Origin: Vitreimonas sp.
Lineage (GTDB): Bacteria; Patescibacteriota; Microgenomatia; UBA1400; PJMF01
Direction of reading: 5' to 3'
Assembly: GCA_035627515.1 (NCBI GenBank)
Contig: DASPLQ010000012.1
Span: forward strand, 455,269 to 519,268
Length of the DNA stretch: 64,000 bases
The position numbers and the translations under genes are program-made. Shown here one piece after another: positions 60 through 61,066 of the stretch (positions are counted from its first letter, which is position 1; every line of letters starts with the position of its first letter). Below the pieces are notes generated by a model. The model made no database searches. It saw only the letters and a list, made by a program, of their open reading frames with translations, and was not told where the DNA came from.

Positions 60-2600
60 TTACAGTGGTCGTGACTTGCGCTCAATGTCAGTCCAAGTAG
101 GGTCGCCAGGACAGCGCCAGAATGAATCCTCATCCCAAGCTTCGACGGCGTATTTGCAGTAACTGACTTGGGTAGTTTTGCCATCGATTTGAAGATTCCC
201 GCCTTTGAGCAATTGAGTTTTGACTTTAGATGCATCGTATTTTTCATTGCTGCAGGGGTTTTTAGCGCTGTTGTAGTAGCCAGCAGCCCGATAGGCCTGT
301 TCATAGGTCCAGTTTTGAGACTCAGGAGCTTTGAGGCCGTTGGCATCAGCTTTACTGCGCAGCATCAGGGCTGCAAAGTGAATCGCGCCTTCGCTACCAC
401 CCTTATCTTTGCCATCGAAGGAACACAAGTTGCGTTCAGCATACGTGGCTGGTCCGCGGCCATGACAGACAGGGACGTTGATCTGCATCGGTCCTACGTC
501 ACCGGTGGAACTGATTTGACAGGAGACTTGTTCGCCAGGTGTAAAGGTTTTTGCTCCGCTATTCAAATAATAATCGTTGGCGTCGCCGCCTTCGATCGAG
601 AATAAACCGCGCAACACGAAGCCGGGCACACGATACTGCCGCGCCGCGCTACAAAAAGTATCTCGCAGTTTTTCTTTAGGTAATAACGTCACTTTCTGAG
701 GGCGATAGAGGGCTTCGCATGATTTGGGAGCGGTGCCGGGCAAGCTATTGCCTTCAGCGGGATCGGTGGTCAACTCTTCATTATCCTCGGCACTACTAGC
801 GGCACATTGGCGTAAGATAAAGGCTTCGTTGCGATTATCTGCGGTCTCTTCGCATTCGCGCAGGACAGCGTTCTGGTCACCGGCAGTCACCGCTTGCTGA
901 GTGGGATAAAAGCTCAAGCCTAAAGGATAACCTACAGTTAAGTCATCGACGTTGGCTTGAGCACCAGGCTCTTCGTAACAGGCATCGGGGTTTTCGGGGT
1001 TGTCGACACAATTGGGTTTGCGGACTTTACCGGCTTTGCCACCACCTCCTTCGAAGTTAATAGGTTGGTTTTGAGTAGAACGGATGCCTTCGCTAATCCG
1101 ATCTTGGTGTTCTTCAGAGTTGGAGATGGAGCTGGCTAAGACGCTTTCCATCGCTTCACGAACTTTGGCGGCATCACCATATTTAGGATCGATATTACTG
1201 AACATGATCAGAGTGACGGTAGGTTGCTCGGCAGGCTTGGTATTTTTACCGAGTACCACGCTACTCAGGAACGACAAACCTTCCCCAACTTTACTAAAGA
1301 TGCTGGAGGCTTTTTCTTTGACACTGGTATTAATATCAAGTTGGCCGCCTAACACTCTGTAGATCGTGCTTTTACCTTCCACGCTGCCCACTTCAGCTAC
1401 TTCTTTGACTTCTTCGTACTCGACGTTTTTGTCGGGTTGGCATTGCTCAGGGTTGATAGTATCCACGGTCATCCATGCCAGTGCTTCCTCAAGTGGCTCA
1501 CAATCCTCAGCATTACAATGCACAATGGGAGAAGCAAGACGGTTTTCTTCTTTTTGTTTCTGAAGTTCGACCTTGAGATCGTCCTGGAGACGGGCAGGCA
1601 ATAAGCTGTTGGCACTTTGACCCATACCAGTCTGGAAAAAGCCATCACCTTGGGCGTCTTGATTACTAATTGTCCCAGCAGGCATTTTGAGAGGCACAAT
1701 TTCCCAACTATCTTGTTGATTACCAGCCAGAGTACTTTTGAGCTTGAAGCGGAGTTTGCTCAGGGCGCCACCAGTTTGATCAGGGTCATCGACGACGTCA
1801 ATTTTGATACCTAACCAAGCTGGATAATACATCCGGTCAAAGTACTGCTTTTGTTCATACATCAGAATATTGCGGAGGGTAAAGAAGTCTCCAGGGAGTT
1901 GAGTTTGATCTTCCAGTTCAGATAACGGCTTAGCATAGTCTTTACAAGTAAAGCTGAGGACGTGGTAGCGTTCGAGAGCTTTAGTGGGCCACCAATCTTT
2001 GACGTTGGGGTAATCGGCATCCAAAGCACAGTCCTTAGGATTAACTAAACGATCACAATGATACTTGGTCATTTCTAAAAGATGCAGCGATTGTTTACAT
2101 TGAAACTCGGCATCGGTTTGGCGGAAAAAAGAGGGTGCAGCCACTAAGCCCTCAGGAGCAGATTTTAGCTCATCCTGGTCAGGATACTCGCTAGTGCGCA
2201 TATCGACGTCAGGTTTATCTTCACTTCGCCACAGCAGCGATTTGAGGCCTTCGGCGTTATCGAGCTTCAGCGATGAGTCAAAATCGACGCGCATATCAGC
2301 AGGAATAGCGTTTTTAATATCTTCGGAAATATTTTCGGTGTGAGTGACGACTTCGGAGCTGGCACAAAAAGCGGTGTAGCCTTTATCGCGCAGGTCACCA
2401 ATGATTTCATTGACTTGTTTACTATCAATGTTGAGATCTTGAAGATAATAATCATCAGGCCCGGGGGGAATACGAGGACTCTCAACTTGGGTTTCTTGAG
2501 CATACGCCACGGTGGAAGTGTTAAACCATATTATACCCAGCCCCATGACCACTAACAGCAGGGCAGTCCACAACACCGACCACAAACGATTTTTGCGCAC
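60..2600 (-). CDS. Large secreted/anchored protein (846 aa) with a C-terminal lytic transglycosylase (SLT-like, VirB1-like) domain. It is the last gene of the pilin operon.
   Basis: N-terminal signal anchor MRKNRLWSVLWTALLLVVMGLGIIWF. C-terminal region has SLT family-1-like motifs: catalytic-Glu context FSIEGG, about 30 aa, then GPMQINV (GLMQ-like), AAGYYNSAKNPC (AYNAG-like) and YCKYAVEAW. Same strand as the pilin array and immediately downstream of it. Confidence 0.5.
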   Translation of the reverse strand: MRKNRLWSVLWTALLLVVMGLGIIWFNTSTVAYAQETQVESPRIPPGPDDYYLQDLNIDSKQVNEIIGDLRDKGYTAFCASSEVVTHTENISEDIKNAIPADMRVDFDSSLKLDNAEGLKSLLWRSEDKPDVDMRTSEYPDQDELKSAPEGLVAAPSFFRQTDAEFQCKQSLHLLEMTKYHCDRLVNPKDCALDADYPNVKDWWPTKALERYHVLSFTCKDYAKPLSELEDQTQLPGDFFTLRNILMYEQKQYFDRMYYPAWLGIKIDVVDDPDQTGGALSKLRFKLKSTLAGNQQDSWEIVPLKMPAGTISNQDAQGDGFFQTGMGQSANSLLPARLQDDLKVELQKQKEENRLASPIVHCNAEDCEPLEEALAWMTVDTINPEQCQPDKNVEYEEVKEVAEVGSVEGKSTIYRVLGGQLDINTSVKEKASSIFSKVGEGLSFLSSVVLGKNTKPAEQPTVTLIMFSNIDPKYGDAAKVREAMESVLASSISNSEEHQDRISEGIRSTQNQPINFEGGGGKAGKVRKPNCVDNPENPDACYEEPGAQANVDDLTVGYPLGLSFYPTQQAVTAGDQNAVLRECEETADNRNEAFILRQCAASSAEDNEELTTDPAEGNSLPGTAPKSCEALYRPQKVTLLPKEKLRDTFCSAARQYRVPGFVLRGLFSIEGGDANDYYLNSGAKTFTPGEQVSCQISSTGDVGPMQINVPVCHGRGPATYAERNLCSFDGKDKGGSEGAIHFAALMLRSKADANGLKAPESQNWTYEQAYRAAGYYNSAKNPCSNEKYDASKVKTQLLKGGNLQIDGKTTQVSYCKYAVEAWDEDSFWRCPGDPTWTDIERKSRPL

Positions 2601-2629
2601 AGTACTATTATACCTGGAAGAGCAAGTGG

Positions 2630-3040
2630 TTATATGGTTAACTTGAACATCGTAAGACTGGGGATGCCAGTGAAGGCGGCAATCAAGTTTAAGATGATGA
2701 AAGCGCTCAGGGCAACGACTAAGCCCACAACCGCGAAGGTGATGGTATTGCGCGCTGCATCAGCGCCTTTTGGATCACTGCCTGAAAGCATGTAGCGAAA
2801 ACCACCAATAATAATCATCACAAAGCCTGCTAACCCAATCAGAGTCAGAGCAATGGACAAAATGTTAGCAATTAAACATTGCAGACCGAGAAAGGTGGCA
2901 ACATCACCCGCCCCAGGAGTGGCGGTGCGATCGGCAATACAGACGCCTGACCAAGCCTTAGTTTGGGCGGCGACAGGTAAAGGGAACATTAATGAGGCGA
3001 CAGTTAGAAGGGGGAGGAAAAAACTCAATTTTTTTAGCAT
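2630..3040 (-). CDS. T4SS-type pilin (TrbC/VirB2-like CPR pilin family), paralog 1. The ORF track extends to 3082, but the internal Met gives a canonical signal peptide.
   Basis: Signal peptide MLKKLSFFLPLLTVASLMFPLPVAAQ, two hydrophobic helices and the conserved core GGFRYMLSGSDPKGADAARNTITFAVVGLVVAL. Confidence 0.6.
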   Translation of the reverse strand: MLKKLSFFLPLLTVASLMFPLPVAAQTKAWSGVCIADRTATPGAGDVATFLGLQCLIANILSIALTLIGLAGFVMIIIGGFRYMLSGSDPKGADAARNTITFAVVGLVVALSAFIILNLIAAFTGIPSLTMFKLTI

Positions 3041-3059
3041 GCACGGTCGATTATACTGC

Positions 3060-3521
3060 TTAGCCTCTGATAGTTCGAGCACTGTCTAAGACATCATTTA
3101 AGTTATTGAATCCTAAAAATCTCACAATCAAGTTGAGGATCGCGTATGACGCTGCCACGATGATCAAGCCAATGACGGCGGCTGTCATTTTACTGCGGGC
3201 TTTTTCAGTGGCACCCTTGTCACCACCAGACATAATCCAGTCAAAAGCGGCTGAGATTAAATAGAAAAAGACCAGTAAAGCCGAGATTACCATCACTAAA
3301 CTCAGGACGGAGTTGAGCCAGCTGCCAAAATCGACGGCAAAACCTCTGGGTAACTCGATGTCACGTGTGCCTAAGTGAAGATTGCCGCGCTGGTTGGTGG
3401 TAGCAGCTGAATTACTAGCTTCACCTGCAGTCGTTTCGGTCGTAAGGTACAAAGCGGCGCCATCTTTTTTAGTGATGACTTGGCCGGGTTGGTTAATTTT
3501 AGTAGTAGTGAGTCCTGACAT
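3060..3521 (-). CDS. T4SS-type pilin-like protein, paralog 2.
   Basis: Core WIMSGGDKGATEKARSKMTAAVIGLIIVAASYAIL with two TM helices. Close paralog of 4146-4553 at both protein and DNA level. Confidence 0.6.
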   Translation of the reverse strand: MSGLTTTKINQPGQVITKKDGAALYLTTETTAGEASNSAATTNQRGNLHLGTRDIELPRGFAVDFGSWLNSVLSLVMVISALLVFFYLISAAFDWIMSGGDKGATEKARSKMTAAVIGLIIVAASYAILNLIVRFLGFNNLNDVLDSARTIRG

Positions 3522-3857
3522 GATAGTGTTTTCTTGATAACGCTTTAATGCGCTTTTGAAACATATTATACCAGATCAGAGAAGATCAAATTTTTTGAAT
3601 AGGGCGGAGAGTCATAAAGTTAAATTTTTCGGCAATTTACTCAAGAATCAAGGAAGTTGATCTTCATTGAGAGTGTGATTGAAATTCTCACTCAAGTCGC
3701 GTTACAAAATGTACATGTCTCAGGTTCAAATTTACATAGATGTTCAATGAAGGATGGTCAATTCTCTGTTATTCCTGAAAGTGAAGATTAATTTAATTTT
3801 CTTACATTTATGCAAGCTTAACGCAAGAATTGTCCGATATATTCAGAAGTTAGAGAT

Positions 3858-4076
3858 ATGCAAATTAACCACCACCCCCAAGATAAACGAATTGTTGCCA
3901 GCATTACTGAGTTAAGAGAAAACTTATTTGAGCTGGTACTGCGTGTGCATTATGAGGAAAGAATTGTGCTTATTAAACGTCATGGCAAAGTTATTGCCAT
4001 GCTGCGCTCATACAATGTTAATCCTTATCGACCGAGAATCCCACCTTGGTTTATTCATAAATACGGTTGGAAGTAG
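3858..4076 (+). CDS. Small protein with weak Phd/YefM-antitoxin-like features, sitting alone in a gap of the pilin array.
   Basis: 72 aa. SITELRENLFELVLRV...IVLIKRHGKVIAML resembles the Phd/YefM N-terminal fold. No partner toxin ORF seen downstream. Confidence 0.25.
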   Translation: MQINHHPQDKRIVASITELRENLFELVLRVHYEERIVLIKRHGKVIAMLRSYNVNPYRPRIPPWFIHKYGWK

Positions 4077-4086
4077 CCACACAACT

Positions 4087-4120
4087 AAAAACCCCGCCCG
4101 GTGCTAAGCACAAGGCGGGG
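4087..4120 (-). terminator. Intrinsic terminator for the minus-strand pilin gene 4146-4553. It lies between convergent genes.
   Basis: Perfect 7-bp GC stem CCCCGCC/GGCGGGG (4092-4098 and 4114-4120) with a 15-nt loop. On the minus strand it is followed by a T5 run (complement of A 4087-4091). Confidence 0.6.
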
Positions 4121-4145
4121 TATAGATTCACACTAAACTAATACA

Positions 4146-4553
4146 TTAGTTATTGTTAATAGTCTTAGGACTGTTCAAAACGTCGTTGAGGTCAGTGAAG
4201 CCTAAGAAGCGCAACACCAAAGTCAAGATAGCGTAGGAAGCAGCCAAAATGATTAAACCGATGACAGCAGCCGTAATTTTACTGCGAGCTTTTTCGGTTT
4301 GGCCTTTGTCACCACCTGAAGTGATCCATTCGATACCACCCCAGATTAAGTACATGAATACTAACAATGCTGCGATCACCATCACGAAACTCAAGACGGC
4401 GTTAAGCAACGTACCGAAGTCGGTAGCGAAACCGCGTCCGGGATCGACGTTGGTAGTAGCCAAGTCCAAAGCGAAAACAGTTCCAGCAGTCATGGCTAAA
4501 GCACTGACGCTAGCGGGAACAGAGAGGGCTAATTTTTGTAAAGTTTTTTTCAT
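4146..4553 (-). CDS. T4SS-type pilin-like protein, paralog 3. Start moved to the internal Met MKKTLQKL; the ORF track gives 4592.
   Basis: Signal peptide MKKTLQKLALSVPASVSALAMTAG. Core WITSGGDKGQTEKARSKITAAVIGLIILAASYAIL. Confidence 0.6.
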   Translation of the reverse strand: MKKTLQKLALSVPASVSALAMTAGTVFALDLATTNVDPGRGFATDFGTLLNAVLSFVMVIAALLVFMYLIWGGIEWITSGGDKGQTEKARSKITAAVIGLIILAASYAILTLVLRFLGFTDLNDVLNSPKTINNN

Positions 4554-4597
4554 TTTACTATTTCTCCTTATGTAGCTGGTTATATTATACATAACAA

Positions 4598-5197
4598 TTA
4601 ACAGGAATTAAAGTCATAGCCTGGTTTTTGTTTGGCAGCGCCACCAATACAATAACAAGGGTCATAGTGATTATATGATAAATGCTTATCAGCTTTGTTG
4701 CAGCGAACCATGGCTGCGCCATCGGTGCAGTAGCCACCCGCTCCACCATCGTTAGACATCTGCCCAACCGTGCAACCACCGCCACCACCAGTCCCACCGC
4801 TGCCTCCGGTTCCGCCGGTGCCAGTTGTAGCTGGAGCTACGATAGCTGCTGGGGTAGAAGACCCTCCCACACCAGCGCCAAAGTTAACAACATTAATGCC
4901 TAAGAAATTTTGTAATACTACAAACAGTGCGATGGTAGAGGCTAAAACGATGATGCCAATGATCGCGCCCGTGATTTTATTACGAGCTTTTTCAATTTGA
5001 CCTTTGTCGCCGCCGGCTGTGATCCAGGTGATCGCACCCCAGACTAAATAGAGGAGGACTAACAGGGCTGCCACCACCATCACGCCACTCAGGACACTGC
5101 CCAGAAAGGCTCCGAAACCGTCACCAGCTTTGGTAACACTGCCATCAACGCCCGGAAGAGCGCCTTGGCCTGCTTGGTAAAAATTGAGTTCATTCAT
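4598..5197 (-). CDS. T4SS-type pilin-like protein, paralog 4, with a Gly-rich and Cys-rich C-terminal extension.
   Basis: Core WITAGGDKGQIEKARNKITGAIIGIIVLAST, followed by a (GGT/GGS)n tract and a Cys-rich tail (CTVGQ...CTDG...CNKADKH...CYCIGG...NSC). Confidence 0.55.
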   Translation of the reverse strand: MNELNFYQAGQGALPGVDGSVTKAGDGFGAFLGSVLSGVMVVAALLVLLYLVWGAITWITAGGDKGQIEKARNKITGAIIGIIVLASTIALFVVLQNFLGINVVNFGAGVGGSSTPAAIVAPATTGTGGTGGSGGTGGGGGCTVGQMSNDGGAGGYCTDGAAMVRCNKADKHLSYNHYDPCYCIGGAAKQKPGYDFNSC

Positions 5198-5212
5198 AAT
5201 TACTATCTTATG

Positions 5213-5623
5213 TTAAATAGTTGGAATAGTTAATCGCAAGATATCGAAATTATTGCCAAAGAACGCCCGACTGATGAAGCCGATGATGAAAAACGATCCT
5301 ACCAATAACACCATACCAATGATGGCATTAGTGATTTTATCGCGGGCTTTTTGAATTTTGCCGCTATCACCACCAGCGTAAATCCACTCTAAACCACCCC
5401 AGAGGAAGTAAATAATCACAGCCAGGGCTCCGACCGCAATCAAACCGCGCCAAATGACGATGAAGTAGCTCATAAAAGTAGCGCCACTTTCAGCTTGAGC
5501 GGGGTTATTCCCTAATTGGCCGGTGACAGGATTTTTGATGCCTTCGAAAGCAGCTTGAACCAGAGAACTGGAACTCATAAATGACAAGATGGCGAGCAGT
5601 GGAGCTAAAAGATGTTTTTTCAT
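5213..5623 (-). CDS. T4SS-type pilin-like protein, paralog 5.
   Basis: Signal peptide MKKHLLAPLLAILSFMSSSSLVQA. Core WIYAGGDSGKIQKARDKITNAIIGMVLLVGSF. Confidence 0.6.
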   Translation of the reverse strand: MKKHLLAPLLAILSFMSSSSLVQAAFEGIKNPVTGQLGNNPAQAESGATFMSYFIVIWRGLIAVGALAVIIYFLWGGLEWIYAGGDSGKIQKARDKITNAIIGMVLLVGSFFIIGFISRAFFGNNFDILRLTIPTI

Positions 5624-5625
5624 GG

Positions 5626-6018
5626 TTAACGATTATTAATGATATCTAGTAATGATTGTCCTGGTGACAAGACATCAATGCCGACGATGCGGCCAATTAA
5701 GCCCATCACACCATAAGCAGCCACAATGATAATTAAGCCCATCACACCTTGAATCATTTGATCGCGAGCTTTACCCACCTTACCACTGTCTCCGCCAGCA
5801 GCAGTCCATTTGAAAGCACCCATCACAAAGTAAACGATGAAAAACAAGGCTGCTAACACAGTCAAAAAGCCTAAAATTTGTGACACAAATAACTCGAGGT
5901 TTTTCAACGCGGTTTCGCGACCGACAGCTGAGTCACCAAATTTAGTGATGTTGAAGTTATCAGCGGCAGGAGTAATGCCTTTTCCAAAGTCAGCAGTTTT
6001 GGCAAGTAACGTTAACAT
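5626..6018 (-). CDS. T4SS-type pilin-like protein, paralog 6.
   Basis: Core FKWTAAGGDSGKVGKARDQMIQGVMGLIIIVAAYGV with two TM helices. Confidence 0.6.
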   Translation of the reverse strand: MLTLLAKTADFGKGITPAADNFNITKFGDSAVGRETALKNLELFVSQILGFLTVLAALFFIVYFVMGAFKWTAAGGDSGKVGKARDQMIQGVMGLIIIVAAYGVMGLIGRIVGIDVLSPGQSLLDIINNR

Positions 6019-6019
6019 A

Positions 6020-6394
6020 TTACGGTCCTTTAATAATCGGATTCAAGATAAAGCCAGCATCATCGAACACAATCAAGCCAATTAAGGCCGCCACGGTGTA
6101 CGAAGTGACAATTAAAATTAAACCAATCACGCTCATGGTGAGACGCTCACGAACTTTGTTGTGAGCACTGGCATCACCGCTCGCAGTAATGTACTCGTAA
6201 CCAGCTAAGATAAATTGAAACATCACCCAGATACCTGCGATGACGGTGGCAACGCGAATAAGGGTGGACATAAAGGCTAAAATACCGATTTGATTACCGC
6301 CTGTGCCACTATAGAGTTGGACACCGGGTGGTGGGGAAACTTTACCAAAGACATTAGCAGGAGGAGCGGCGAGGAAAAAAGAAAAGAGCGACAT
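6020..6394 (-). CDS. T4SS-type pilin-like protein, paralog 7. Start moved to the internal Met MSLFSFF; the ORF track gives 6475, which overlaps the upstream gene.
   Basis: Signal-like N-terminus MSLFSFFLAAPPANVFG. Core YEYITASGDASAHNKVRERLTMSVIGLILIVTSY. Confidence 0.5.
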   Translation of the reverse strand: MSLFSFFLAAPPANVFGKVSPPPGVQLYSGTGGNQIGILAFMSTLIRVATVIAGIWVMFQFILAGYEYITASGDASAHNKVRERLTMSVIGLILIVTSYTVAALIGLIVFDDAGFILNPIIKGP

Positions 6395-6423
6395 GATGTG
6401 AATTATACCATTTTTTATGATGG

Positions 6424-6783
6424 CTAGAACATAATCTCTTGGCCAATGACAATTTCTACCACCTGAACTATCCAATAGGCAATAAACATGATGATATAAC
6501 CAGCCGCGGCGGTAGTGATAATGGATTTGGCTTCATCCTTACCTTTACTACCACTTTGAATAAACTTAAAGCCAGCATAAATAATCAACAAAAAGAGAAT
6601 AATGCCAGCTAACACAAACAAGTTGCTGACCAAAATATTGATGAGTTGAGTGGGTTGAGCGTAAACGCTTTTAACTGTGGCTTTGCCTGGACCAAGTGTC
6701 AAACAATTGCCCAGATCAATTCCCGAGACACCGGGGTCACACCCAGGGGCAGCAGCTAATAAACTTAACGTAGACAACAGCAT
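6424..6783 (-). CDS. T4SS-type pilin-like protein, paralog 8. It is the first gene of the array.
   Basis: Signal peptide MLLSTLSLLAAAPGC. Core FKFIQSGSKGKDEAKSIITTAAAGYIIMFIAYWIVQVVEIV. The C-terminus resembles the orphan pilin at 16159-16599. Confidence 0.55.
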   Translation of the reverse strand: MLLSTLSLLAAAPGCDPGVSGIDLGNCLTLGPGKATVKSVYAQPTQLINILVSNLFVLAGIILFLLIIYAGFKFIQSGSKGKDEAKSIITTAAAGYIIMFIAYWIVQVVEIVIGQEIMF

Positions 6784-6832
6784 ATGTGTGATATTATAAG
6801 TCTTAACTGCTTATTTACCAAACAGGAAACGC

Positions 6833-7387
6833 ATGACTGCTCAGTTGGATACAGATAAGATATTGCTCTCTCGATTAAAAGCGGGTGATCCAGCCGCTGT
6901 CCAAGAGTGGTTCCAAACCTATCACGCTAAGTTAGTCCGTTTTATAGCTGCTAAAGTTACCAATTCCACTGATGCCGAAGAATTAGCTCAAGAAACCTTC
7001 ATCAACTGCTTGAAACATTTACCGTTATTCCGAGGTGAGTCGCAAATTTGGACGTGGATGCAAAGTGTAGCCCGTCATGAAATTGCTGATTACTTCCGTA
7101 AAAAATACGCTAAAAAAGCGTTAAATGTTTTACCTCTCAGTGAGTTAATTGGCACTGAGCCGGTGGCTGATGCTCACGAACTAGCTGAAAAAGTCAAAGC
7201 CACTCTCAAAAAAATGACAGCCGAAGCCCAAGAATTATTGTGGCTGAAGTATGTCGATGGCAAGAAAGTTGCCGATATTGCTCTAGAGTTGGGGCGCAGC
7301 GTCAAAGCCGTGGAGTCAGATTTATTTAGAGCTCGTGTGGAGTTTAAGGCACTATATGCCGAAATCGATACTGCTGCCACCCGCTGA
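6833..7387 (+). CDS. ECF (sigma-70 family, sigma-24-like) RNA polymerase sigma factor, divergent from the pilin array.
   Basis: Region-2-like ETFINCLKHLPLFRGESQIWTWMQSVARHEIADYFRKK. Region-4 HTH LLWLKYVDGKKVADIALELGRSVKAVESDLFRARVEF. Confidence 0.75.
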   Translation: MTAQLDTDKILLSRLKAGDPAAVQEWFQTYHAKLVRFIAAKVTNSTDAEELAQETFINCLKHLPLFRGESQIWTWMQSVARHEIADYFRKKYAKKALNVLPLSELIGTEPVADAHELAEKVKATLKKMTAEAQELLWLKYVDGKKVADIALELGRSVKAVESDLFRARVEFKALYAEIDTAATR

Positions 7388-7553
7388 TTTTTTGGGTAAA
7401 CTGCAAGCTGAGGCTGCGCGGCAAGCTCGGCTGCATGAACATCGTTTTTTCCCCCCGCAACTGGATTTTTTAACCTCGTTTATTGGTCGATATCCCTGGC
7501 AAACGAGTGGAGCCTTAGCGTTGCTAACGGCTTTAGTATTGGAGTTGCTGTGA
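7356..7553 (+). CDS. Small hypothetical protein with a C-terminal hydrophobic segment, overlapping the sigma gene 3' end. Possible anti-sigma factor. Start uncertain.
   Basis: ORF in another frame overlapping the sigma stop. Single TM ALALLTALVLELL. Position immediately after an ECF sigma gene is typical for anti-sigma factors. No motif support. Confidence 0.2.
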   Translation: MPKSILLPPADFLGKLQAEAARQARLHEHRFFPPQLDFLTSFIGRYPWQTSGALALLTALVLELL

Positions 7554-7903
7554 CAAATCGATCTTTACTAAGCTGGAGCTTTTCACTGCTTTATTCCCTG
7601 GCACAAATTACACAGGGATTGTTATTGCACCCTTACCAAACGATGCAGTCTCTGGTTCAGGATAAAGTTTTTGTGTGGATGACACTATTGCCGGCAGTGG
7701 TGTTAGCAATGGTCACAGTTGGATGGCGGTTTGTGATCGTGCCGGTAGTACGATTGGTTTTTTCCTGCCAGGCCACTGGCTTTATTGGATGCGATTTTCT
7801 ACCCTTTATTTCGAATACCCTGACATTCTTCTGTATTTATTGGCAGGTGCTATTGATTTATTTGCTGTTTAGATTTGATTGGGTGTTTGAAAACGACACC
7901 TAA
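7550..7903 (+). CDS. Hypothetical polytopic membrane protein.
   Basis: 117 aa with 3-4 hydrophobic helices. Start overlaps the previous ORF by 4 nt. Confidence 0.35.
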   Translation: MTNRSLLSWSFSLLYSLAQITQGLLLHPYQTMQSLVQDKVFVWMTLLPAVVLAMVTVGWRFVIVPVVRLVFSCQATGFIGCDFLPFISNTLTFFCIYWQVLLIYLLFRFDWVFENDT

Positions 7904-7935: not shown

Positions 7936-8337
7936 CTACGCAGCTTTGGGCACAGCGGCAGATGACGGTAAATGCTGTTTGATTTTGGCTAAAATATCTT
8001 CTAACGACATATCGCTTTTGACGATGTAATCAATAGCCCCGAGTTTTAAGCCCTTATCAATATCTTCACGTTGCCCTAAGTTCGAGGCGATAATGACAGG
8101 AATTTTTTTCCAGGTAGGATTACTACCAATATCAGTTAAGACTGAGAAGCCATCTTTAATCGGCATCATTAAATCTAATAAAATGACATCGGGTTGGCTA
8201 ACTTTGAGCGCCTCAATCGCTTCATTGCCATCGGCAGCTAATACTACTTCGTAACCGGCTTTAGCTAACTTTACGCGATAGGCATTGCCTAAAAACTTAT
8301 CATCCTCGGCTACTAAAATCTTAAACATATTTACCAC
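7936..8337 (-). CDS. Stand-alone response regulator receiver (CheY-like REC) protein.
   Basis: ILVAEDD...(phospho-acceptor context)...VILLDLMMPIKDGFSVL...IPVIIASN...DYIVKS. Confidence 0.8.
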   Translation of the reverse strand: MVNMFKILVAEDDKFLGNAYRVKLAKAGYEVVLAADGNEAIEALKVSQPDVILLDLMMPIKDGFSVLTDIGSNPTWKKIPVIIASNLGQREDIDKGLKLGAIDYIVKSDMSLEDILAKIKQHLPSSAAVPKAA

Positions 8338-8349
8338 CCTTTTATTTTA

Positions 8350-8775
8350 TTAATTACTAGTTGCTACAACTGGTTGTTCATCTGATTCTTCTGAAGTAAT
8401 GAAATCTTTAATAATCGCGATAATTTCATCTAACCGGTACTCAGCTTTAAGCAAATATTTTTTTGCACCTAAAGCTAACATGTTATGCACTTTTTCTGGA
8501 TTAGCTGAATTACTGACCACAACTACCGGAATCTCACTCCAACGAGGGTCTTTTTTAAGCTCTTGCATAAAGGAAAGGCCATTCATATCTTTAAGATAAT
8601 AGTCTAGCCAGACAGCGTCAGGTAATTCATCAACATTACTCAGGTAGTCCACTGCTTGTTGGCCACTGGAACAAGATAAAACATCAATTCCCGTCAACTT
8701 GAGTTTTTTAGTGATAGCTTGTAGAAGTAAAACCTCATCTTCAACCACCATCACTGTAGGAAATTTTTTACTCAT
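8350..8775 (-). CDS. Stand-alone response regulator receiver (REC) protein.
   Basis: VMVVEDE...AVWLDYYLKDMNGLSFMQELK...IPVVVVSN...KYLLK. Confidence 0.75.
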   Translation of the reverse strand: MSKKFPTVMVVEDEVLLLQAITKKLKLTGIDVLSCSSGQQAVDYLSNVDELPDAVWLDYYLKDMNGLSFMQELKKDPRWSEIPVVVVSNSANPEKVHNMLALGAKKYLLKAEYRLDEIIAIIKDFITSEESDEQPVVATSN

Positions 8776-9560
8776 AACGAAGGTCTTTCTGTAACTACTA
8801 CTGGGTGGGTCGGAAAAGTTACGGTAAAGGTACTGCCTCTATTTTCTTGTGAATGAAACTCAATGGTAGCCGCTATCATGTCCACTAATAATTTAACTAT
8901 GTACAAACCCATCCCCGAGCCATCAGCTTTAGCCTTGATATTATCAGCTCTAAAAAACTTTGTAAACGTTTGAGACTGCTGGGTTAATGGGATTCCATAT
9001 CCGGTGTCTGTAATCTGCCATTGAATGTCGGCCGCCGTGCTTTTTAGTTTTACGGTGATCTGGCCATCAGCAGGGGTGTATTTAATGGCATTAGAAATCA
9101 GGTGCCTAAAAATAATCTTTACCACCTCTTCAGGATATGGCACTGGTGGCAGGTCGGTTTCATATTCCTCACTCACGTGCTGGTGCGTGTTTTTACCCCG
9201 GAGTTGCAGTTGTTCGGAAATGACTTGCTGTGAAAGGTGAGCCAGATTTATATTCTCCGGTTGGGGAAGTACATGGCCAGCTTTTAAGGTGGCAGAGTGC
9301 AAGAGGTGAGTCAGAACATCGCTGAGACGACGATTGCTGTCATAAATAGAGAGCACATGGTCGTATTGTTCAGGTGTGAGGGGGCCAATATCTCCTGCCA
9401 GTAACAGTTCAGTTAACCATGCCACAGATGAAATGGGGGTTCGTAACTGATGGGAGAGGTGAGTGAGAAATTCTAGTTGGGTACTATCGACGGTGGAGGA
9501 AGAGACGGACATATGATTGTGTGTGACGCGTGACCTACTTTTAATCCAGTGAGACCTCAC
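8772..9560 (-). CDS. Soluble sensor histidine kinase (HisKA + HATPase_c).
   Basis: H-box LSHQLRTPISSVAWLTELLL. N-box NAIKYTP. G-boxes DTGYGIP and GSGMGLYIVKLL. Confidence 0.8.
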   Translation of the reverse strand: MRSHWIKSRSRVTHNHMSVSSSTVDSTQLEFLTHLSHQLRTPISSVAWLTELLLAGDIGPLTPEQYDHVLSIYDSNRRLSDVLTHLLHSATLKAGHVLPQPENINLAHLSQQVISEQLQLRGKNTHQHVSEEYETDLPPVPYPEEVVKIIFRHLISNAIKYTPADGQITVKLKSTAADIQWQITDTGYGIPLTQQSQTFTKFFRADNIKAKADGSGMGLYIVKLLVDMIAATIEFHSQENRGSTFTVTFPTHPVVVTERPSL

Positions 9561-11406
9561 CTTTTTTAGCTATCATCCCAGTCACCGGCAAACTAAACCA
9601 AAAAGTAGTGCCCTTATTTTCTCCCGATTCAAACCAAATCTTTCCTCCAGATGATTCAATGACCGCTTTTACTAAATACAAACCTAAGCCAGTGCCATCT
9701 GACTCAACCTTGACAACATTTTCAGCCCGGAAAAACTTTTGGAAAACTTTATGTTGTTGTTCTTTAGGAATCCCATATCCAGAGTCAGTGACCTGCGAAA
9801 TGATTTGATCATCTTTTTTAGAAATGATGACCGTAACTTCTCCACCAGGTGGGGTGTACTTAATAGCATTAGTTAGTAAGTTCATGTAGACATGACTAAT
9901 TAATTGAGGATCCACATTTATGATAGGTAAGTCCTGATGAGCACTAATGATTAAATTGTGTTTTTTCTCTTGGACTTTTACGTCTAACTCAGTGGCTACT
10001 GTTTGGACTAATTTTAATAAATCAGTTGGTTTGGGATCGACAATAATGCGTCCTGACTCAATGCGCGAGATGTTCAGGAGTGAATTAACGAGTTGAATCA
10101 TGCGTTCCGTAGAGTCAGCAATGTTTTGGGCAAAGTCATGTTGTTCGGCTTCAAGTTTACCGGCATCACCAGCCAATAGCATCTCAGTGAACCATTTGAT
10201 AGCAGATAAAGGAGTACGGAGCTGATGGGAAGCTAGGGAAATAAACTCGGTCTTCATTCTATCGACTTCTTTTTCGTGCGTGATGTCACGAATGATCGTA
10301 ATCGTCCCAATGATCTCACCTTTTTTGACTACTGGCGTAGTGGTGATACTGACGTAGTGTTTATTGCTATCATAATCAATGACATAGCTGCCTTTAATTT
10401 GTTGACCGGTTTGAAGAGCTGTGCTAATTGGTTGAGCATCGGCGGGGACCAGTTGCTGTCTCTCATCAGTAAGGACCATGACGTCATTAATACGTTTACC
10501 TTCTGGATGAGGATCTTTGAGTTTGATGATTTCATGCAAGCGTTGATTAGTGAGCTGAATCCGACCTTCTTTATCAGTCACGATCATGCCATCACCAATA
10601 CTGACCAACATGGCTTCATCTTTTGCCTTCTCAGCTTCGATTTCAAGAATTTTAGTTTCCAACTGCCCGGTGCGTTCTTTAACTAAGGCTTCTAATTTAT
10701 CGCGAGTGGTGTCCACTTCGGCTCGCATTTTTTCAAAAGCAGTGGCCAACTCACCAATTTCATCATGAGTAGTAATAGGAATGCGAACTTTAAGGTTGCC
10801 CTTTTGCATTTCAAGTGCTGCTTCCTTCAAATGACGAATGTTACGAATCACTACTTGGTCAAGGAGAAGGGAAATCAGTACGTAGGCAATTACCATGCCA
10901 GCCAAAGTCAACAGCACCACAAAAATGATGAATTGATTCAAACGCTGAGCAGATTTGTCATTCGATAAAGCTAGGTGAGCGGCTGCCACTACTTTATTAT
11001 TAACCACTACTGGCGAAATGGCTTCTAGAACAGCCTCTCCCTCATGGTACTCATTTTTAATAGTTTCTATGCCATTAAAAGCGTTGTTAACTTCGTCAGC
11101 TTCATCTGCCGTTAATAAGGTTTCAGGCAAATTTTCAGTGGAGTAAATAACGGTATGGTCAGGTTTGAGTATTTGGGCAAAATTAACTTTCTCATCTAGG
11201 AGTGCTTCGAGCTTTCGCCGATCATTAGAGCTCTCAAAACTGAGATCACCACTTTCTAGAAGTGTAATGTAGGTAGAAATTCTATCAAATAACAGTTGTC
11301 TCTCAGTTTGGCTTTTGTTGCGAATGGTCATGCCACCAATCACCATCAGCACGATGAAGACGGGCACCAAAGTTAAAAGCAGAATTTTATTTTTAAGACT
11401 CAGCAT
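9541..11406 (-). CDS. Membrane-bound sensor histidine kinase (TM-sensor-HAMP-PAS-HisKA-HATPase_c).
   Basis: N-terminal TM LLLTLVPVFIVLMVIGGM plus a second TM after about 150 aa extracellular. H-box ASHQLRTPLSAIKWFTEMLL. NAIKYTPPGG, DSGYGIP and GTGLGLYLVKAVIE. Confidence 0.85.
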   Translation of the reverse strand: MLSLKNKILLLTLVPVFIVLMVIGGMTIRNKSQTERQLLFDRISTYITLLESGDLSFESSNDRRKLEALLDEKVNFAQILKPDHTVIYSTENLPETLLTADEADEVNNAFNGIETIKNEYHEGEAVLEAISPVVVNNKVVAAAHLALSNDKSAQRLNQFIIFVVLLTLAGMVIAYVLISLLLDQVVIRNIRHLKEAALEMQKGNLKVRIPITTHDEIGELATAFEKMRAEVDTTRDKLEALVKERTGQLETKILEIEAEKAKDEAMLVSIGDGMIVTDKEGRIQLTNQRLHEIIKLKDPHPEGKRINDVMVLTDERQQLVPADAQPISTALQTGQQIKGSYVIDYDSNKHYVSITTTPVVKKGEIIGTITIIRDITHEKEVDRMKTEFISLASHQLRTPLSAIKWFTEMLLAGDAGKLEAEQHDFAQNIADSTERMIQLVNSLLNISRIESGRIIVDPKPTDLLKLVQTVATELDVKVQEKKHNLIISAHQDLPIINVDPQLISHVYMNLLTNAIKYTPPGGEVTVIISKKDDQIISQVTDSGYGIPKEQQHKVFQKFFRAENVVKVESDGTGLGLYLVKAVIESSGGKIWFESGENKGTTFWFSLPVTGMIAKKGEVSLD

Positions 11407-11433
11407 TTATAGTGTTGGGTGAACTCACTTAAT

Positions 11434-13032
11434 TTATTCTTCGCCACTCGTTTCATTATCAATGGCCTTCATATCTGCCACGATCCGGTTGTAAGCTTGG
11501 TCAGCTGTCATTTTGCCATCTAAAACAGCCACTAAATATTGGCGGAAATCACGAGTCATCTTTTCATATTTTTCACCCAAAATGTAATCTACTGTTTTAG
11601 AATCGTAGACATTGCCACCATATTTATTACTAATGTAGCTAATGTATTTATCAAACTGGTCGGCTTGCTGTGAACTATCACCGGATTCACTTAAATTGCC
11701 TTTGATTCCGGAAGGGCCCTTAGCATAGCGAATCCATTTTTCAGCGTTATTGGGGGTAGAGTACTCCATCAATAAACTGACAGCCTCATCTTTAACTGGT
11801 GAATTTTTCATCACAGCAAACATGGGGTTATACCCACCCATATAGTGAGTTACTGGTTGGTACATAGGCATTTCAACCGGCACCATCTTCATAGTTTTGT
11901 CTTTATCGATGCCCCGCCAGTGACTATACATCCAACTAGCGCCGCCTGAATAAAAGACAGTTTTATTATCGAGAGGATAGTTGCGAGTAGGTACCCATTC
12001 TAAAGTTTCATACTCTGCTACTAAAGGTTCATATTGCGACATGTTCTCCAGCGTGGCGAGCGTTTTTCGCAGTGCAGCGCGTTTGGTCGGGGTGAGTTCT
12101 AGCTTTTTGAGTTCCGTAAGGTCAGAAATTTCTGACCGAAACAAACCTTGGAAAAGGTTAAAGGTAGCATTGCCGTAGCCTACGGTTGCACCTTTCTCAC
12201 TGCCATTGTCATAAAAGGCGCCATACTGTGTACCGTGTTGCTTGTTATATGCTTGAATAGCTTTCAGATAGCCAATGAGATCGGCGTCAGTCATGCCTTG
12301 TTCCTTAATTTTGATCCCCATCAAATCAGTCAATTCTTTGTTATAGAAAAAAGGTTGGTAAAAACCCTCGATAAAAGGTCCCGTAATGGTCCCATTCATA
12401 TGGTTGCGGAATTGCGGGTCACTTAAAACGAAGGGTTTCTGGGTTTCTTTAAATCCCGGGACAGTTTCAAAATCAACTAAGTGATTTTTAGCCCAGTTAG
12501 GATCACTAACACCTTCAGCAACATCACTATAGTTGAAAGGTTCAATCCAAATGACGTCCCACTTGATATCGCCACTTTTGATTTGATCAATAACGGCTTG
12601 CAGAGCTTCAGCCCGACCACCTGGGAAATCAACATTCCATTGCAGATTGACTTTAATATCAGGGTGACGAGCTTCAAATTCCCGGATAATTTCTAACATG
12701 TAATCTTCGCGTTTATCTTCGCCTTTCCAGTGGCCAATCATGTTGATAGTTTTTTGTTGGGTATTGGTGGCAGTTTGAGTGGTAATTTTTTGGCGAGTGG
12801 TGATTTCGTTATTGCAGAAAAAGGAAAAATAACCTAAACCAGCAAGGAGTAATACCAGTACTGTCCCGATGCCTAGTAGTGGCCATAACGTCAATCTACT
12901 TAAAAAGCTGCCTGAGTTAGTGTCAGCAGTGTCAGAATCTGGGAGTGAAGCTGATTCGTGAAGGTTTTGTTCGTTGGGTTTTGTTTCTAAAGAATAATCT
13001 TCTTGTGAAGGTGTGGGAAGGGCAGTGAACAT
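11434..13032 (-). CDS. Membrane-anchored extracellular solute-binding protein (ABC SBP family-1-like), probably a co-sensor or ligand receptor.
   Basis: N-terminal TM anchor LTLWPLLGIGTVLVLLLAGLGYF. Large extracytoplasmic domain with SBP-like layout (HWKGEDKREDYMLEIIREFEARHPDIKVNLQWNVDF...). No adjacent ABC permease or ATPase. Directly upstream of the sensor kinase in the same orientation. Confidence 0.45.
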   Translation of the reverse strand: MFTALPTPSQEDYSLETKPNEQNLHESASLPDSDTADTNSGSFLSRLTLWPLLGIGTVLVLLLAGLGYFSFFCNNEITTRQKITTQTATNTQQKTINMIGHWKGEDKREDYMLEIIREFEARHPDIKVNLQWNVDFPGGRAEALQAVIDQIKSGDIKWDVIWIEPFNYSDVAEGVSDPNWAKNHLVDFETVPGFKETQKPFVLSDPQFRNHMNGTITGPFIEGFYQPFFYNKELTDLMGIKIKEQGMTDADLIGYLKAIQAYNKQHGTQYGAFYDNGSEKGATVGYGNATFNLFQGLFRSEISDLTELKKLELTPTKRAALRKTLATLENMSQYEPLVAEYETLEWVPTRNYPLDNKTVFYSGGASWMYSHWRGIDKDKTMKMVPVEMPMYQPVTHYMGGYNPMFAVMKNSPVKDEAVSLLMEYSTPNNAEKWIRYAKGPSGIKGNLSESGDSSQQADQFDKYISYISNKYGGNVYDSKTVDYILGEKYEKMTRDFRQYLVAVLDGKMTADQAYNRIVADMKAIDNETSGEE

Positions 13033-16158: not shown

Positions 16159-16599
16159 TTAGAAAATGGTGACGCCGAGGATAATCTCCACGATTTGCAT
16201 GATCCAGTAAGCGCAGAATAACATCATGAAACCGAGAATAGCAGCGGTGATGCGCTGGCGACCTGAGTCAATCGATTTTTTAGATGCGGCTCCACTCAGC
16301 ATCTCGAAGCCACCCCAGACAATCATCACAAACAAAATCAGGCCGGCAATGGGGAAGGCAAATAATAAAAACCGAGAGATGAAACCACCGGGGGTGGAGA
16401 GTTCATTAGCAACCGGAGAGTTCATAAACTTCAAGGGGTTTAAGGCGTCGAGAGTAGCTTTATCAACTTTATCGAAGTCACGCAAAGCATCAGCAGGTGG
16501 GTTACTACCCATAGGACTTGCAGCCAAAATCTGGCTGGGTAAAAGCATTGCTAAAAAATTAAGTAGTATAGATAGAGCAATCAAAACACTTTTTTTCAT
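16159..16599 (-). CDS. T4SS-type pilin-like protein, orphan paralog outside the main array. Start moved to MKKSVLIAL; the ORF track gives 16614.
   Basis: Signal peptide MKKSVLIALSILLNFLAMLLPSQILAA. Core WGGFEMLSGAASKKSIDSGRQRITAAILGFMMLFCAYWIMQIVEIILG. Confidence 0.55.
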   Translation of the reverse strand: MKKSVLIALSILLNFLAMLLPSQILAASPMGSNPPADALRDFDKVDKATLDALNPLKFMNSPVANELSTPGGFISRFLLFAFPIAGLILFVMIVWGGFEMLSGAASKKSIDSGRQRITAAILGFMMLFCAYWIMQIVEIILGVTIF

Positions 16600-16603
16600 A
16601 GCT

Positions 16604-17659
16604 TTATGATCCAAAACCAGGAATTTGCAGGATACTAACTCCGATAAATTGTAAGCCGGCTACTGAGAATAATGTGAACAATAAACCTACCACTGCAGAA
16701 GTTAACATATCTTTGGCTTCGCTGGTGCGTTTAGGATCACCCTGACTGATAGCGAACATGAAGCCCGAACTTAGACTCAATAACACCGATGTCCCGGCAG
16801 ATACAGAAATGCCGATCTTGAGAATACTTTGAATTAAGTCAGTAGGATCAGTTGATAAACAACCCACAGCTGTCCAAATACCATCAGACTCTAAGCAGCT
16901 CGTGCATTTGCCATAAGCAGCAGTACTTTCAGGAATCTGTTTACAGAGTTCAAAGTCATAGAGTTCTGAGGAAGCTTTTGCCAGGTGGACACCACAAATA
17001 AATTCATCTTGGCCAGTGATATTGCTGCCTAAAATGCCTCTATTTCCTCGCAGTTCCAGCCGACTAATGTTGTCTTTTTTAAAGTTACCGCTTACGCCTT
17101 CCCACTCAGTGATTAAATAGCCATTATCCCAATTACACTTAAAATTTGAACTTTTACTAATTCCATCCCATTCACCTTCAAACACTTTTTCCAAACCATC
17201 TTCTAATTCACCGGTAACTGCTACACCAACAAAAGTACCTACACCAGGCACCGCAGTCCCAATGGTCCCACCAGCTATGGCTTCTAGTTCTTCAAAACTA
17301 TCATTAGTCCGTTGTTGGCTCACGTGACAGTTTTCAGTTTGTTCATCACTACTCGGTGTGGTGGCTAAGACGGCATATTCCAAAACCATACCTTTTGGTA
17401 ATTGGTGAAGGGTACTGGGTTTGCCGTCGTCCGTAGAACCTTGGGTTTTATAAATAATATCTCCGGTCTTAGTATCACGGAAAATAAAAGTACAATTACA
17501 GGCAGCAGGATTGGTGCTACAACCAAAATCACTCATGGCTGGAGTTTCAGCAAAAACGAAAGAAGGGGTTAGCAAAAGGACACTGGGTACGAAAAGAGCC
17601 ACCAAAAAACGAGCAAGTGAGCGAAAAACTTTTCTTGTCACCCCTGTATTGTATCGCAT
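16604..17659 (-). CDS. Secreted Cys-rich protein fused to a C-terminal pilin-like domain. Possible minor or tip pilin.
   Basis: N-terminal signal anchor, then an extracellular domain of about 250 aa with 14 or more Cys. C-terminus ISQGDPKRTSEAKDMLTSAVVGLLFTLFSVAGLQFIGV matches the pilin core with two TM helices. Confidence 0.5.
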   Translation of the reverse strand: MRYNTGVTRKVFRSLARFLVALFVPSVLLLTPSFVFAETPAMSDFGCSTNPAACNCTFIFRDTKTGDIIYKTQGSTDDGKPSTLHQLPKGMVLEYAVLATTPSSDEQTENCHVSQQRTNDSFEELEAIAGGTIGTAVPGVGTFVGVAVTGELEDGLEKVFEGEWDGISKSSNFKCNWDNGYLITEWEGVSGNFKKDNISRLELRGNRGILGSNITGQDEFICGVHLAKASSELYDFELCKQIPESTAAYGKCTSCLESDGIWTAVGCLSTDPTDLIQSILKIGISVSAGTSVLLSLSSGFMFAISQGDPKRTSEAKDMLTSAVVGLLFTLFSVAGLQFIGVSILQIPGFGS

Positions 17660-36129: not shown

Positions 36130-36131
36130 AA

Positions 36132-60847: not shown

Positions 60848-61066
60848 ATGCCAAAAAATGTAACTTTAGCTGAACTTGAAGCTGCCGAAGAACGGGCGCA
60901 AGAAATTGAAGATGAAAGAGAAGCTAAAAAAGCTGAACGCGAAGAAAAAAAGCGTCTCAAAGAACTCAAGAAAAAACGAGAAGCTCAAGAAAAATTGGTA
61001 GCACCCTTTTTATTATTCCTCTCAATTGTTGTTTCCTTGGTCTTGTATATAATCTACGGCAGATGA
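60848..61066 (+). CDS. Small Lys/Glu-rich protein with a C-terminal TM. Start taken at the internal Met; the ORF track gives 60806, which overlaps cmk.
   Basis: MPKNVTLAELEAAEERAQEIEDEREAKKAEREEKKRLKELKKKREAQEKL, then the hydrophobic tail APFLLFLSIVVSLVLYIIYG. Confidence 0.35.
   Translation: MPKNVTLAELEAAEERAQEIEDEREAKKAEREEKKRLKELKKKREAQEKLVAPFLLFLSIVVSLVLYIIYGR

Follow-up and report, generated by a model that had tools for sequence, protein, structure and literature searches.

A large secreted protein closing VirB2-like pilin arrays in Patescibacteria, with a putative and very divergent GH23 lysozyme-like domain

VirB1 is a small protein with an N-terminal SLT domain, and its monoderm forms combine SLT with CHAP or NlpC/P60 and a membrane anchor. 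VirB1 of the Agrobacterium VirB/D4 system, PrgK of pCF10 and TraG of pIP501 are thought to open peptidoglycan locally. The subject of the present work is a gene of comparable setting, found in a stretch of 64,000 nucleotides (contig DASPLQ010000012.1, positions 455,269 to 519,268; hereafter the window, meaning the whole of this stretch). It lies at positions 60-2600 on the minus strand, encodes a protein of 846 amino acids that is predicted to be secreted, and follows directly on eight genes for VirB2-like pilins.

Arrays of 2-11 VirB2-like genes are reported from 383 Patescibacteria assemblies, mainly of Microgenomatia and Saccharimonadia (Quinonero-Coronel et al. 2025, PMC12102498), and the eight-gene PF18895 array of the window is an instance of these (PMC12102498; Wang et al. 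2023, PMC10633639). According to PMC12102498, monoderm type IV secretion systems (T4SSs) need wall hydrolases, e.g., PrgK and TraG, the second part of VirB1 acts with the pilus, and a lysozyme homologue in the T4SS cluster of S. epibionticum is essential. It also reports that VirB1 homologues are rare when searched by hidden Markov model (HMM) and concludes that the VirB2 pilus seemingly does not need one, allowing for other glycosidases. In S. epibionticum, the T4SS and pilin array are essential for epibiotic growth (PMC10633639 and PMC12857230), and the role of the T4SS in Patescibacteria is not established (PMC11665869, PMC12857230). Patescibacterial lytic transglycosylases have been proposed to attack host envelopes (PMC11665869). 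In the literature searched, including the accessible parts of PMC12102498 and PMC10633639, no description was found of a conserved large protein closing pilin arrays.

The protein resembles VirB1, PrgK and TraG in its predicted Sec-dependent export, in a putative SLT/GH23-type muralytic domain and in being encoded with T4SS or pilus genes. It differs from them in lacking a match to PF01464, which VirB1-type domains have, in its length of 846 residues, in the C-terminal location of the domain, and in having neither a CHAP or NlpC/P60 partner nor an anchor. Moreover, its gene adjoins VirB2-like genes but lies 31 kb from the VirB4-like gene, and 6 of the 19 family members add a GH5 domain. Since the Pfam SLT search is negative, the VirB1, TrsG and CD419 profiles of T4SS typing are also unlikely to match. 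The first-pass annotation of the window had credited the protein with a "VirB1-like lytic transglycosylase domain". A remote GH23-superfamily domain is supported, whereas membership of the VirB1 family is not, given the C-terminal domain, the missing anchor and the distant VirB4-like gene, and "VirB1-like" can be kept at most as a functional analogy.

Protein architecture and the C-terminal domain

The protein consists of a predicted Sec-type signal peptide, an acidic, Cys-rich module of ~590 residues and a putative, very divergent GH23 domain of ~200 residues. The features of the gene are the following.

60-2600, minus strand: gene of the 846-residue secreted modular protein, from the open reading frame (ORF) list; stop codon at 60-62, GTG start
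2499-2600, minus strand: predicted signal peptide, residues 1-34, cleaved between AYA and Q; sole hydrophobic segment
738-2498, minus strand: central, family-defining module, residues 35-621, acidic, with 12 Cys; delimited by phmmer relatives, no library match
63-737, minus strand: putative lysozyme-like (GH23/SLT-superfamily) domain, residues 622-846, from AF2 model, Foldseek and hhalign
258-662, minus strand: part of this domain aligned to the SLT profile by hhalign, residues 647-781
585-602, minus strand: FSIEGG, residues 667-672, containing Glu670
591-593, minus strand: codon of Glu670, candidate catalytic acid
474-494, minus strand: GPMQINV, residues 703-709, counterpart of the SLT motif GLMQ by hhalign
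252-287, minus strand: AAGYYNSAKNPC, residues 772-783, counterpart of the SLT motif AAYNAG in the local hhalign alignment
135-161, minus strand: YCKYAVEAW, residues 814-822, possible counterpart of the last SLT motif (Y..V helix); Tyr and Cys invariant in 12 sequences

Secretion by a Sec-type signal peptide is predicted from features of the N-terminus, which reads MRKNRLWSVLWTALLLVVMGLGIIWFNTSTVAYA followed by Q. It comprises a basic n-region, a hydrophobic stretch of 20 residues that is the only one in the protein, and a cleavage site of the AxA type (AYA before Q), Ala34 being invariant in a 19-sequence family alignment. This single hydrophobic segment is cleavable, and no membrane anchor is present after it. 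Residues 36-640 are acidic, with net charges of -17, -13 and -14 in three segments. Cys residues number 20, 12 of them within residues 35-621 and 8 within the last 220. The homologue search also returned an identical protein recorded on a 1.41-Mb JGI contig.

Profile and model evidence places the C-terminal ~200 residues in the GH23 lysozyme/lytic-transglycosylase superfamily, as a remote member with a conserved candidate catalytic Glu. Both the profile and the AF2 model are based on A2, an alignment of 12 C-terminal homologues. Eleven of these have Glu at position 670 and the twelfth has Asp; GPMQI is conserved, as are, without exception, five Cys. The reference consisted of 11 genuine SLT domains, namely, E. 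coli Slt70, MltE and MltC together with eight plasmid-borne SLT proteins, some of which come from conjugative or mating pair formation- (MPF-) typed plasmids and three from Gram-positive hosts. In hhalign, the A2 profile and this reference aligned over 97 columns (Prob 71%, P 3.7e-5, score 39.4), with Glu670 on Slt70 Glu478 (RQES), GPMQ (703-706) on GLMQ and GYYNS (774-778) on AYNAG. GPMQINV starts 33 residues past Glu670, and relative to SLT domains, 14-17 residues are inserted between Glu670 and GPMQ. The pairing of YCKYAVEAW with the last SLT helix appears in the global mode only. As controls, 98 of 100 column shuffles scored 16.7 or less and the reversed profile scored 13.2. The other two shuffles reached 131-136 over 8 columns at the profile end; they are treated as a numerical artefact and not as counter-evidence on significance.

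The AF2 model of the domain has a predicted local distance difference test score (pLDDT) of 84.1 and a predicted TM score (pTM) of 0.85. It places Glu670 at the C-terminal end of helix 660-670, which is followed by a small beta region and then by GPMQ, and this modelled order is that expected of GH23 enzymes. A beta-hairpin insertion precedes the last helix. In the Foldseek search of the PDB, ~25 of the top 28 matches were peptidoglycan-cleaving enzymes of the lysozyme superfamily, mostly GH23 (probability to 0.87), and the neighbours included phi6 P5 lysin, cod g-type lysozyme, MltF, MltC, MltE, T7 core protein, Tse3, SltB3 and phiKZ gp144. Two more of these 28 were GH124 cellulases, which we take to have the same fold as GH23. 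In BFVD, the top matches were LT_GEWL/SLT phage proteins, with a probability to 1.0.

These results bear on several statements of the first-pass annotation. The ORF follows the pilin array and carries the four motifs at the positions given there, with eight PF18895 genes 29 nucleotides upstream. The SLT-like order of motifs is seen for Glu670, GPMQ and YYNS, which stand in register with those of Slt70. Glu670 is also the candidate for the catalytic Glu, by its alignment to Slt70 Glu478, its position at the end of a predicted helix and its retention in 11 of 12 homologues; its place in a cleft is deduced. The proposed relationship to Slt70- or VirB1-type folds is favoured by a model of pLDDT 84 and by neighbours that are nearly all GH23, and the E values, at least 0.14 in the PDB and at least 0.02 in BFVD, do not reach the same strength. 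The suggested Pfam family, SLT PF01464, gave no match to the isolated C-terminus even at E<=10.

Several of the results on the domain weigh against its assignment. Nothing of the SLT kind, PF01464 and PF18896 included, was found by Pfam for isolated residues 623-846 at E<=10, and the whole 846-residue protein matched no Pfam family at E<=1 and no entry of NCBIfam or PHROGs. PDB sequence searches gave noise only, whether the query was the whole protein, its C-terminus, or a profile of the C-terminus or of the whole family; the whole-family query returned in addition one weak match to a GH5 mannanase, which came from the N-terminus of the relatives. A small purpose-built SLT HMM found nothing meaningful on the protein. 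The hhalign probability is only 71%. Foldseek E values are weak (best 0.14 in the PDB and 0.02 in BFVD, TM 0.3-0.5), with zero matches at E<=0.001 in the two libraries. Furthermore, the residue after Glu670 is Gly (EGG) and not the usual Ser (ES), and the placement of Glu670 in the cleft comes from alignment and modelled secondary structure. The domain is visible solely by profile-profile and fold comparison.

The direct HMM and PDB sequence searches, all negative, and the lack of a Foldseek match at E<=0.001 would also be expected if there were no lysozyme-like domain, the motifs being a chance resemblance and the model matches noise. This explanation is very improbable in view of the hhalign P of 3.7e-5 with three motifs in register and clean controls. 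It is further contradicted by two independent structure libraries, the PDB and BFVD, both topped by the same enzyme superfamily, and by the relative P0017, in which Pfam detects a significant lysozyme-like domain in the same place.

Compared with described GH23 proteins (Slt70, MltC, MltE, goose egg-white lysozyme and phi6 P5), the domain appears to have the helix-Glu, G-x-M-Q, Y-N-x-G/A and Tyr helix elements in the same order and the same predicted fold class. The differences are an identity of ~15%, EGG for ES, an insertion of ~15 residues between Glu and GPMQ, a beta-hairpin before the last helix, 8 Cys (5 of them invariant in the family) and a score below the threshold of every sequence HMM tried. 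Some of these differences are what a lysozyme-like fold without peptidoglycan cleavage might show, i.e., a glycan-binding module or an enzyme for another polymer. EGG in place of ES, the 14-17-residue and beta-hairpin insertions, the Asp that replaces Glu in one relative and the fold shared with the GH124 cellulases among the Foldseek matches are all compatible with it. Nevertheless, such a function is highly improbable, as the Glu, the glutamine of GPMQ and the YN motif are kept in most members, as expected of an active GH23 enzyme. GH23 comprises transglycosylases and hydrolytic lysozymes alike, and sequence cannot discriminate between lytic transglycosylase and hydrolytic muramidase chemistry in this protein.

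A rare family built on the central module

Apart from the protein itself, an exhaustive phmmer search of 1.84 billion cluster representatives returned 18 relatives, which are 909-1256 residues long and have E values of 3e-34 to 8e-4. The family therefore counts 19 cluster representatives among the 1.84 billion, plus the more distant P0020 from a profile search. A word-indexed homologue search returned the protein itself only, the family profile adding just P0020, and C-terminal patterns searched in GTDB genomes, JGI metagenomes and IMG/VR yielded zero relatives. Because of this rarity, the family may be specific to one lineage. An origin from a mobile element was also considered and is not supported, tblastn against phage and plasmid collections being without match.

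P0003 aligns over nearly the full length (residues 59-825), six relatives (P0002-P0007) have the same C-terminal domain (E 3e-30 to 2e-38), and ten further relatives align chiefly to residues ~46-414. The matches over residues ~46-414 and 59-825 are to proteins of 1000-1250 residues, at E 1e-12 to 3e-34. Because relatives align across the central module, the N-terminal ~590 residues are the conserved core of a rare family and not an orphan. The first-pass annotation had described the ~650 residues preceding the C-terminal domain as novel. They are acidic, Cys-containing and without library match, as it had noted, and they are also the core of a family with 18 phmmer relatives. Residues 35-621 had no match in Pfam, NCBIfam, PHROGs or the PDB. 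The full-length AF2 model was too poor for this module (pLDDT 57), and Foldseek with that model retrieved nothing. In the family alignment, Cys168, Cys182, Cys191, Cys219 and Cys628 are near-invariant.

Both ends of the protein vary within the family. Of the 18 phmmer relatives, 17 are longer by ~160-410 residues, at the N-terminus where aligned, and the mature N-terminus of the window protein aligns to about residue 320 of the longer ones. Most members have ~300 extra N-terminal residues, which are missing from the window protein and from P0009. A Pfam GH5 "Cellulase" domain (PF00150) lies within this extension in 6 of 19 members. The C-terminus exists in at least six sequence types. That of P0017, which stands at the equivalent position after the same central module and follows a pilin array, matches Pfam SLT_3 (PF18896) with 30.9 bits against a cut-off of 27, unlike the window protein, which has no PF18896 match. 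When the C-terminal profile of the window family was compared by hhalign with the single SLT_3 end of P0017, the result was insignificant. All six types place the helix-Glu motif on the same positions of the SLT profile, each alignment being weak alone. The window C-terminus and the P0017 SLT_3 are different sequence types of the same superfamily.

The big protein also diverges far faster than the products of neighbouring genes. It is 21-27% identical between genomes, as against 55-63% for the ECF sigma factor, 37-56% for the NUDIX protein and 34-53% for the downstream gene in the same pairs.

Linkage to the pilin array and genomic surroundings

The family gene consistently holds the last position of VirB2-like pilin arrays in a Patescibacteria lineage. 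The relevant features of the window are given below.

2630-6783, minus strand: eight VirB2-like pilin genes, PF18895 T4SS_pilin, E 1e-9 to 2e-5
2630-3082, 3060-3521, 4146-4592, 4598-5197, 5213-5623, 5626-6018, 6020-6475 and 6424-6783, all minus strand: the single pilin genes of the array
2607-2612, minus strand: TATAAT box 6 nucleotides before the GTG start of the big gene, probable own promoter of leaderless type
6793-6821, minus strand: best sigma-70-like promoter match of the region, TTGGTA-17-TATAAT, 10 of 12 positions, 9 nucleotides before the first pilin ATG
6833-7387, plus strand: extracytoplasmic function (ECF) sigma factor, divergent from the array, with Pfam Sigma70_r2, r4_2 and ECF
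33793-36129, plus strand: VirB4-like ATPase (DUF87/TrwB-type), the only candidate T4SS motor in the window, 31 kb from the array

Seven of the eight pilins score above the PF18895 gathering threshold and the eighth reaches 25.3 bits against 26.6. The last pilin gene and the big gene are on the same strand, separated by 29 nucleotides. Besides the window, PF18895 pilin genes stand directly upstream of the family gene in all eight related loci that are readable upstream (L001/L002, L003, L004, L005, L007, L099, L100 and L101). This adjacency persists in L001 and L003 despite a different wider neighbourhood.

Co-transcription with the pilins, which the first-pass annotation had asserted, is not established, because a TATAAT box adjoins the GTG start of the big gene and recurs in the same arrangement before the homologous gene in three of six related loci (L004, L006 and L007). 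Over both strands (128,000 base-strands), the window contains just 21 TATAAT sequences. The big gene is therefore likely, by its sequence context, to have its own promoter of leaderless type. TATAAT is also found before the first pilin gene in all four loci examined, at the same distance in L004, L005 and L007.

The plus-strand genes at 55091 and 61063 also have an exact TATAAT, 6-9 nucleotides ahead of their start codons. Near-matches (TAGAAT, TACAAT and GATAAT) stand at a like distance before several more genes, and Shine-Dalgarno-like sequences are mostly absent. These TATAAT boxes near start codons, together with the scarcity of Shine-Dalgarno-like sequences, suggest that the lineage may make wide use of leaderless mRNAs.

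The divergent ECF sigma gene also stands beside the array in L004, L005, L007, L100 and L101, and this conserved pairing hints at ECF-controlled expression of the pilus. The sigma-70-like character of the array promoter speaks against such control. Behind the sigma gene, two small ORFs without Pfam match (7335-7553 and 7550-7903, plus strand) are possible anti-sigma or membrane partners.

The array itself has some peculiarities. The fifth pilin (4598-5197, minus strand, 199 residues) is unlike its seven neighbours in having, behind the pilin core, a C-terminal extension of ~100 residues that is Gly/Thr-rich (GTGGTGGSGGTGGGGGC) and contains 6 Cys. A gap of 625 nucleotides (3522-4145) divides the array into 6 + 2 pilin genes and contains a 72-residue ORF (3858-4076, plus strand) with a weak Phd/YefM antitoxin match (E 6e-5) under the Pfam cut-off. 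The second pilin ORF, 6020-6475, is listed with a TTG start that overlaps the first pilin gene (6424-6783) by 52 nucleotides, and its true start is probably further downstream, near MSLFSFFLAA. Similarly, the GTG-start ORF 2630-3082 overlaps 3060-3521 by 23 nucleotides, and its start may also be further downstream.

On the other side of the family gene, a conserved protein of 305-337 residues with no signal peptide evident by eye is encoded directly downstream and convergently in four loci, with 34-53% identity (L001 11050-12036, L004 12727-13644, L005 11813-12745 and L007 11429-12442). Genes of similar size and orientation (322 and 361 residues) occupy the same place in L099 and L101. The equivalent position in the present genome falls beyond the left edge of the window. 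A role of this gene as an immunity protein was considered and rejected, as no signal peptide is evident by eye and the protein is more conserved than the big one.

The conservation of the entire neighbourhood, which is syntenic for NUDIX, amino-acid kinase, UppS, ECF sigma and the convergent downstream gene, would suit a general secreted autolysin, or a glycosidase of wall turnover or nutrient scavenging, whose place behind the array reflects inherited gene order and no functional link. The apparent own promoter of the gene would suit it too. This reading is nevertheless improbable, since the adjacency is kept in L001, where the surroundings consist of Fic, AbiEii and SpoIID, and in L003, with an acyltransferase upstream and a multi-transmembrane protein downstream. 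Adjacency in such differing neighbourhoods is not expected from inherited order alone.

As regards T4SS components, no VirB6-like membrane protein was recognised near the VirB4-like gene. A 567-residue protein encoded 2 nucleotides past that gene (33793-37835 region, plus strand) has no transmembrane segment, signal peptide or Pfam match. In L003, the locus of P0005, which is the closest C-terminal relative, the next gene after the big one, on the same strand, encodes a 574-residue protein (5808-7532) with a signal peptide, ~7 transmembrane segments and a Gly-rich tail. Its likeness to VirB6/TrbL is confined to shape; no Pfam match is on record for it, and it is not similar to the window ORFs beside the VirB4-like gene. 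Among the scanned ORFs of the window, no Pfam-detectable SLT/VirB1 protein was found. The scan covered all ORFs of at least 150 residues except 21437-22087, 27768-28301, 49089-49718, 49722-50345, 55091-55777, 58113-58565, 60151-60837 and 61063-61599, as well as 16159-16614, which overlaps a longer ORF. SpoIID is a peptidoglycan-cleaving family, and a SpoIID-domain protein of 583 residues is encoded at 17727-19478 (plus strand), 11 kb from the array. Its 592-residue counterpart in L001 (4031-5809), the locus of P0020, directly adjoins the pilin genes.

Between the ECF sigma and NUDIX genes, which are nearly adjacent in L004, L005, L007, L100 and L101, the window has a response regulator, two histidine kinases (one with HAMP and PAS) and a solute-binding protein (7936-13032, minus strand). 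This segment is a lineage-specific insertion of a sensory module beside the array. Two large ORFs without Pfam match, 43508-46720 (minus strand, 1070 residues) and 56080-58095 (plus strand, 671 residues), are not homologous to the large unannotated ORFs that follow the family gene in other loci.

The LepA of the window matches that of "Patescibacteria group bacterium BroJett032" with 76-77% identity, followed by metagenome-assembled genomes (MAGs) of Patescibacteria, Pacebacteria and Microgenomatus. Because LepA and gene content point there, the genome belongs to Patescibacteria, and the NCBI label "Vitreimonas sp." (Alphaproteobacteria) is almost certainly a binning or labelling error. Window proteins filed under this label include HYD34943.1, HYD34928.1 and HYD34917.1, and many related third party annotation (TPA) MAGs are likewise labelled "uncultured Pseudomonadales".

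The putative target wall and the meaning of the family

The protein is probably a peptidoglycan-cleaving enzyme linked to the pilus, whichever wall it acts on, as judged from its predicted domain and its gene context. After export, the C-terminal domain would bind the glycan strands of peptidoglycan and cleave the MurNAc-GlcNAc bond. Glu670 would be its only acid catalyst, which is the arrangement of other GH23 enzymes. Kept at the VirB2-like pilus or close to it by the central module, the enzyme would make the local breach of the cell wall that the pilus needs.

One possible target is the wall of the producer, which the domain would open, as an analogue of VirB1 or PrgK, for assembly of the VirB2-like pilus or T4SS, the central module docking to pilus or channel. 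The strictly conserved linkage to the pilin array agrees with this, as do the absence of a Pfam-detectable SLT/VirB1 protein among the scanned ORFs of the window and the usual role of hydrolases encoded with secretion or pilus genes. Furthermore, monoderm T4SSs need such hydrolases, e.g., PrgK and TraG, and the lysozyme homologue of the S. epibionticum T4SS cluster is essential (PMC12102498). What fits less well is the GH5-type glycosidase of relatives (6 of 19 members by Pfam), for which the own peptidoglycan offers no obvious role. The variable C-terminal type, the fast divergence, the cleavable signal peptide without anchor, the VirB4-like gene 31 kb away and the lack of a match to an SLT or VirB1-type Pfam HMM also count against it. 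Action on the own wall is uncertain, yet nearly as likely as action on a host.

The envelope of a partner (host) cell is tentatively favoured as the target over the own wall. This lean is based on the ~300 extra N-terminal residues of most relatives, with a GH5 (non-peptidoglycan) glycosidase in 6 of 19, on the variation of the lysozyme-like end among at least six types, on the divergence of the big protein, far faster than that of its neighbours, and on the absence of a membrane anchor once the signal peptide is cleaved. T7 gp16, PRD1 P7 and the type VI secretion effector Tse3 breach the wall of another cell. They resemble the window protein in its putative GH23-like domain at one end of a large, otherwise unrelated protein, and they are among its Foldseek neighbours. 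Unlike them, the window protein shows no similarity outside the fold, no phage or plasmid relative and no immunity gene, and its delivery to another cell is hypothetical.

Other considerations pull away from a host target. Most wall hydrolases encoded beside secretion or pilus genes act on the wall of the producer, and fast divergence is expected of any surface protein. GH5 (PF00150) is absent from the window protein by Pfam, and no immunity-like gene lies nearby.

In its furthest form, the host-directed reading would make the family the working head of the Patescibacterial VirB2-like pilus, that is, a pilus-borne or pilus-delivered, fast-diversifying enzyme that drills the host envelope to connect the epibiont, by its GH23-like domain and, in most members, GH5 as well. 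This is rather doubtful. If true, it would account for the dependence of epibiotic growth on the T4SS and pilin array, and for the lack of VirB1 beside VirB2 in HMM surveys.

Patescibacteria, which live attached to host cells, account for much of bacterial diversity. In the single species that was tested, the T4SS and its pilin array are essential (PMC11665869, PMC12857230). The present protein is probably a secretion- or pilus-associated wall hydrolase of a rare family, found undescribed in the literature searched and missed by standard HMMs. A putative lysozyme-type domain can accordingly end a pilin array directly yet evade every standard HMM, and because of this the reported absence of VirB1 may partly be a problem of detection. 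The family is a concrete candidate for the step at which the pilus meets the cell wall, be it the own wall or that of the host.

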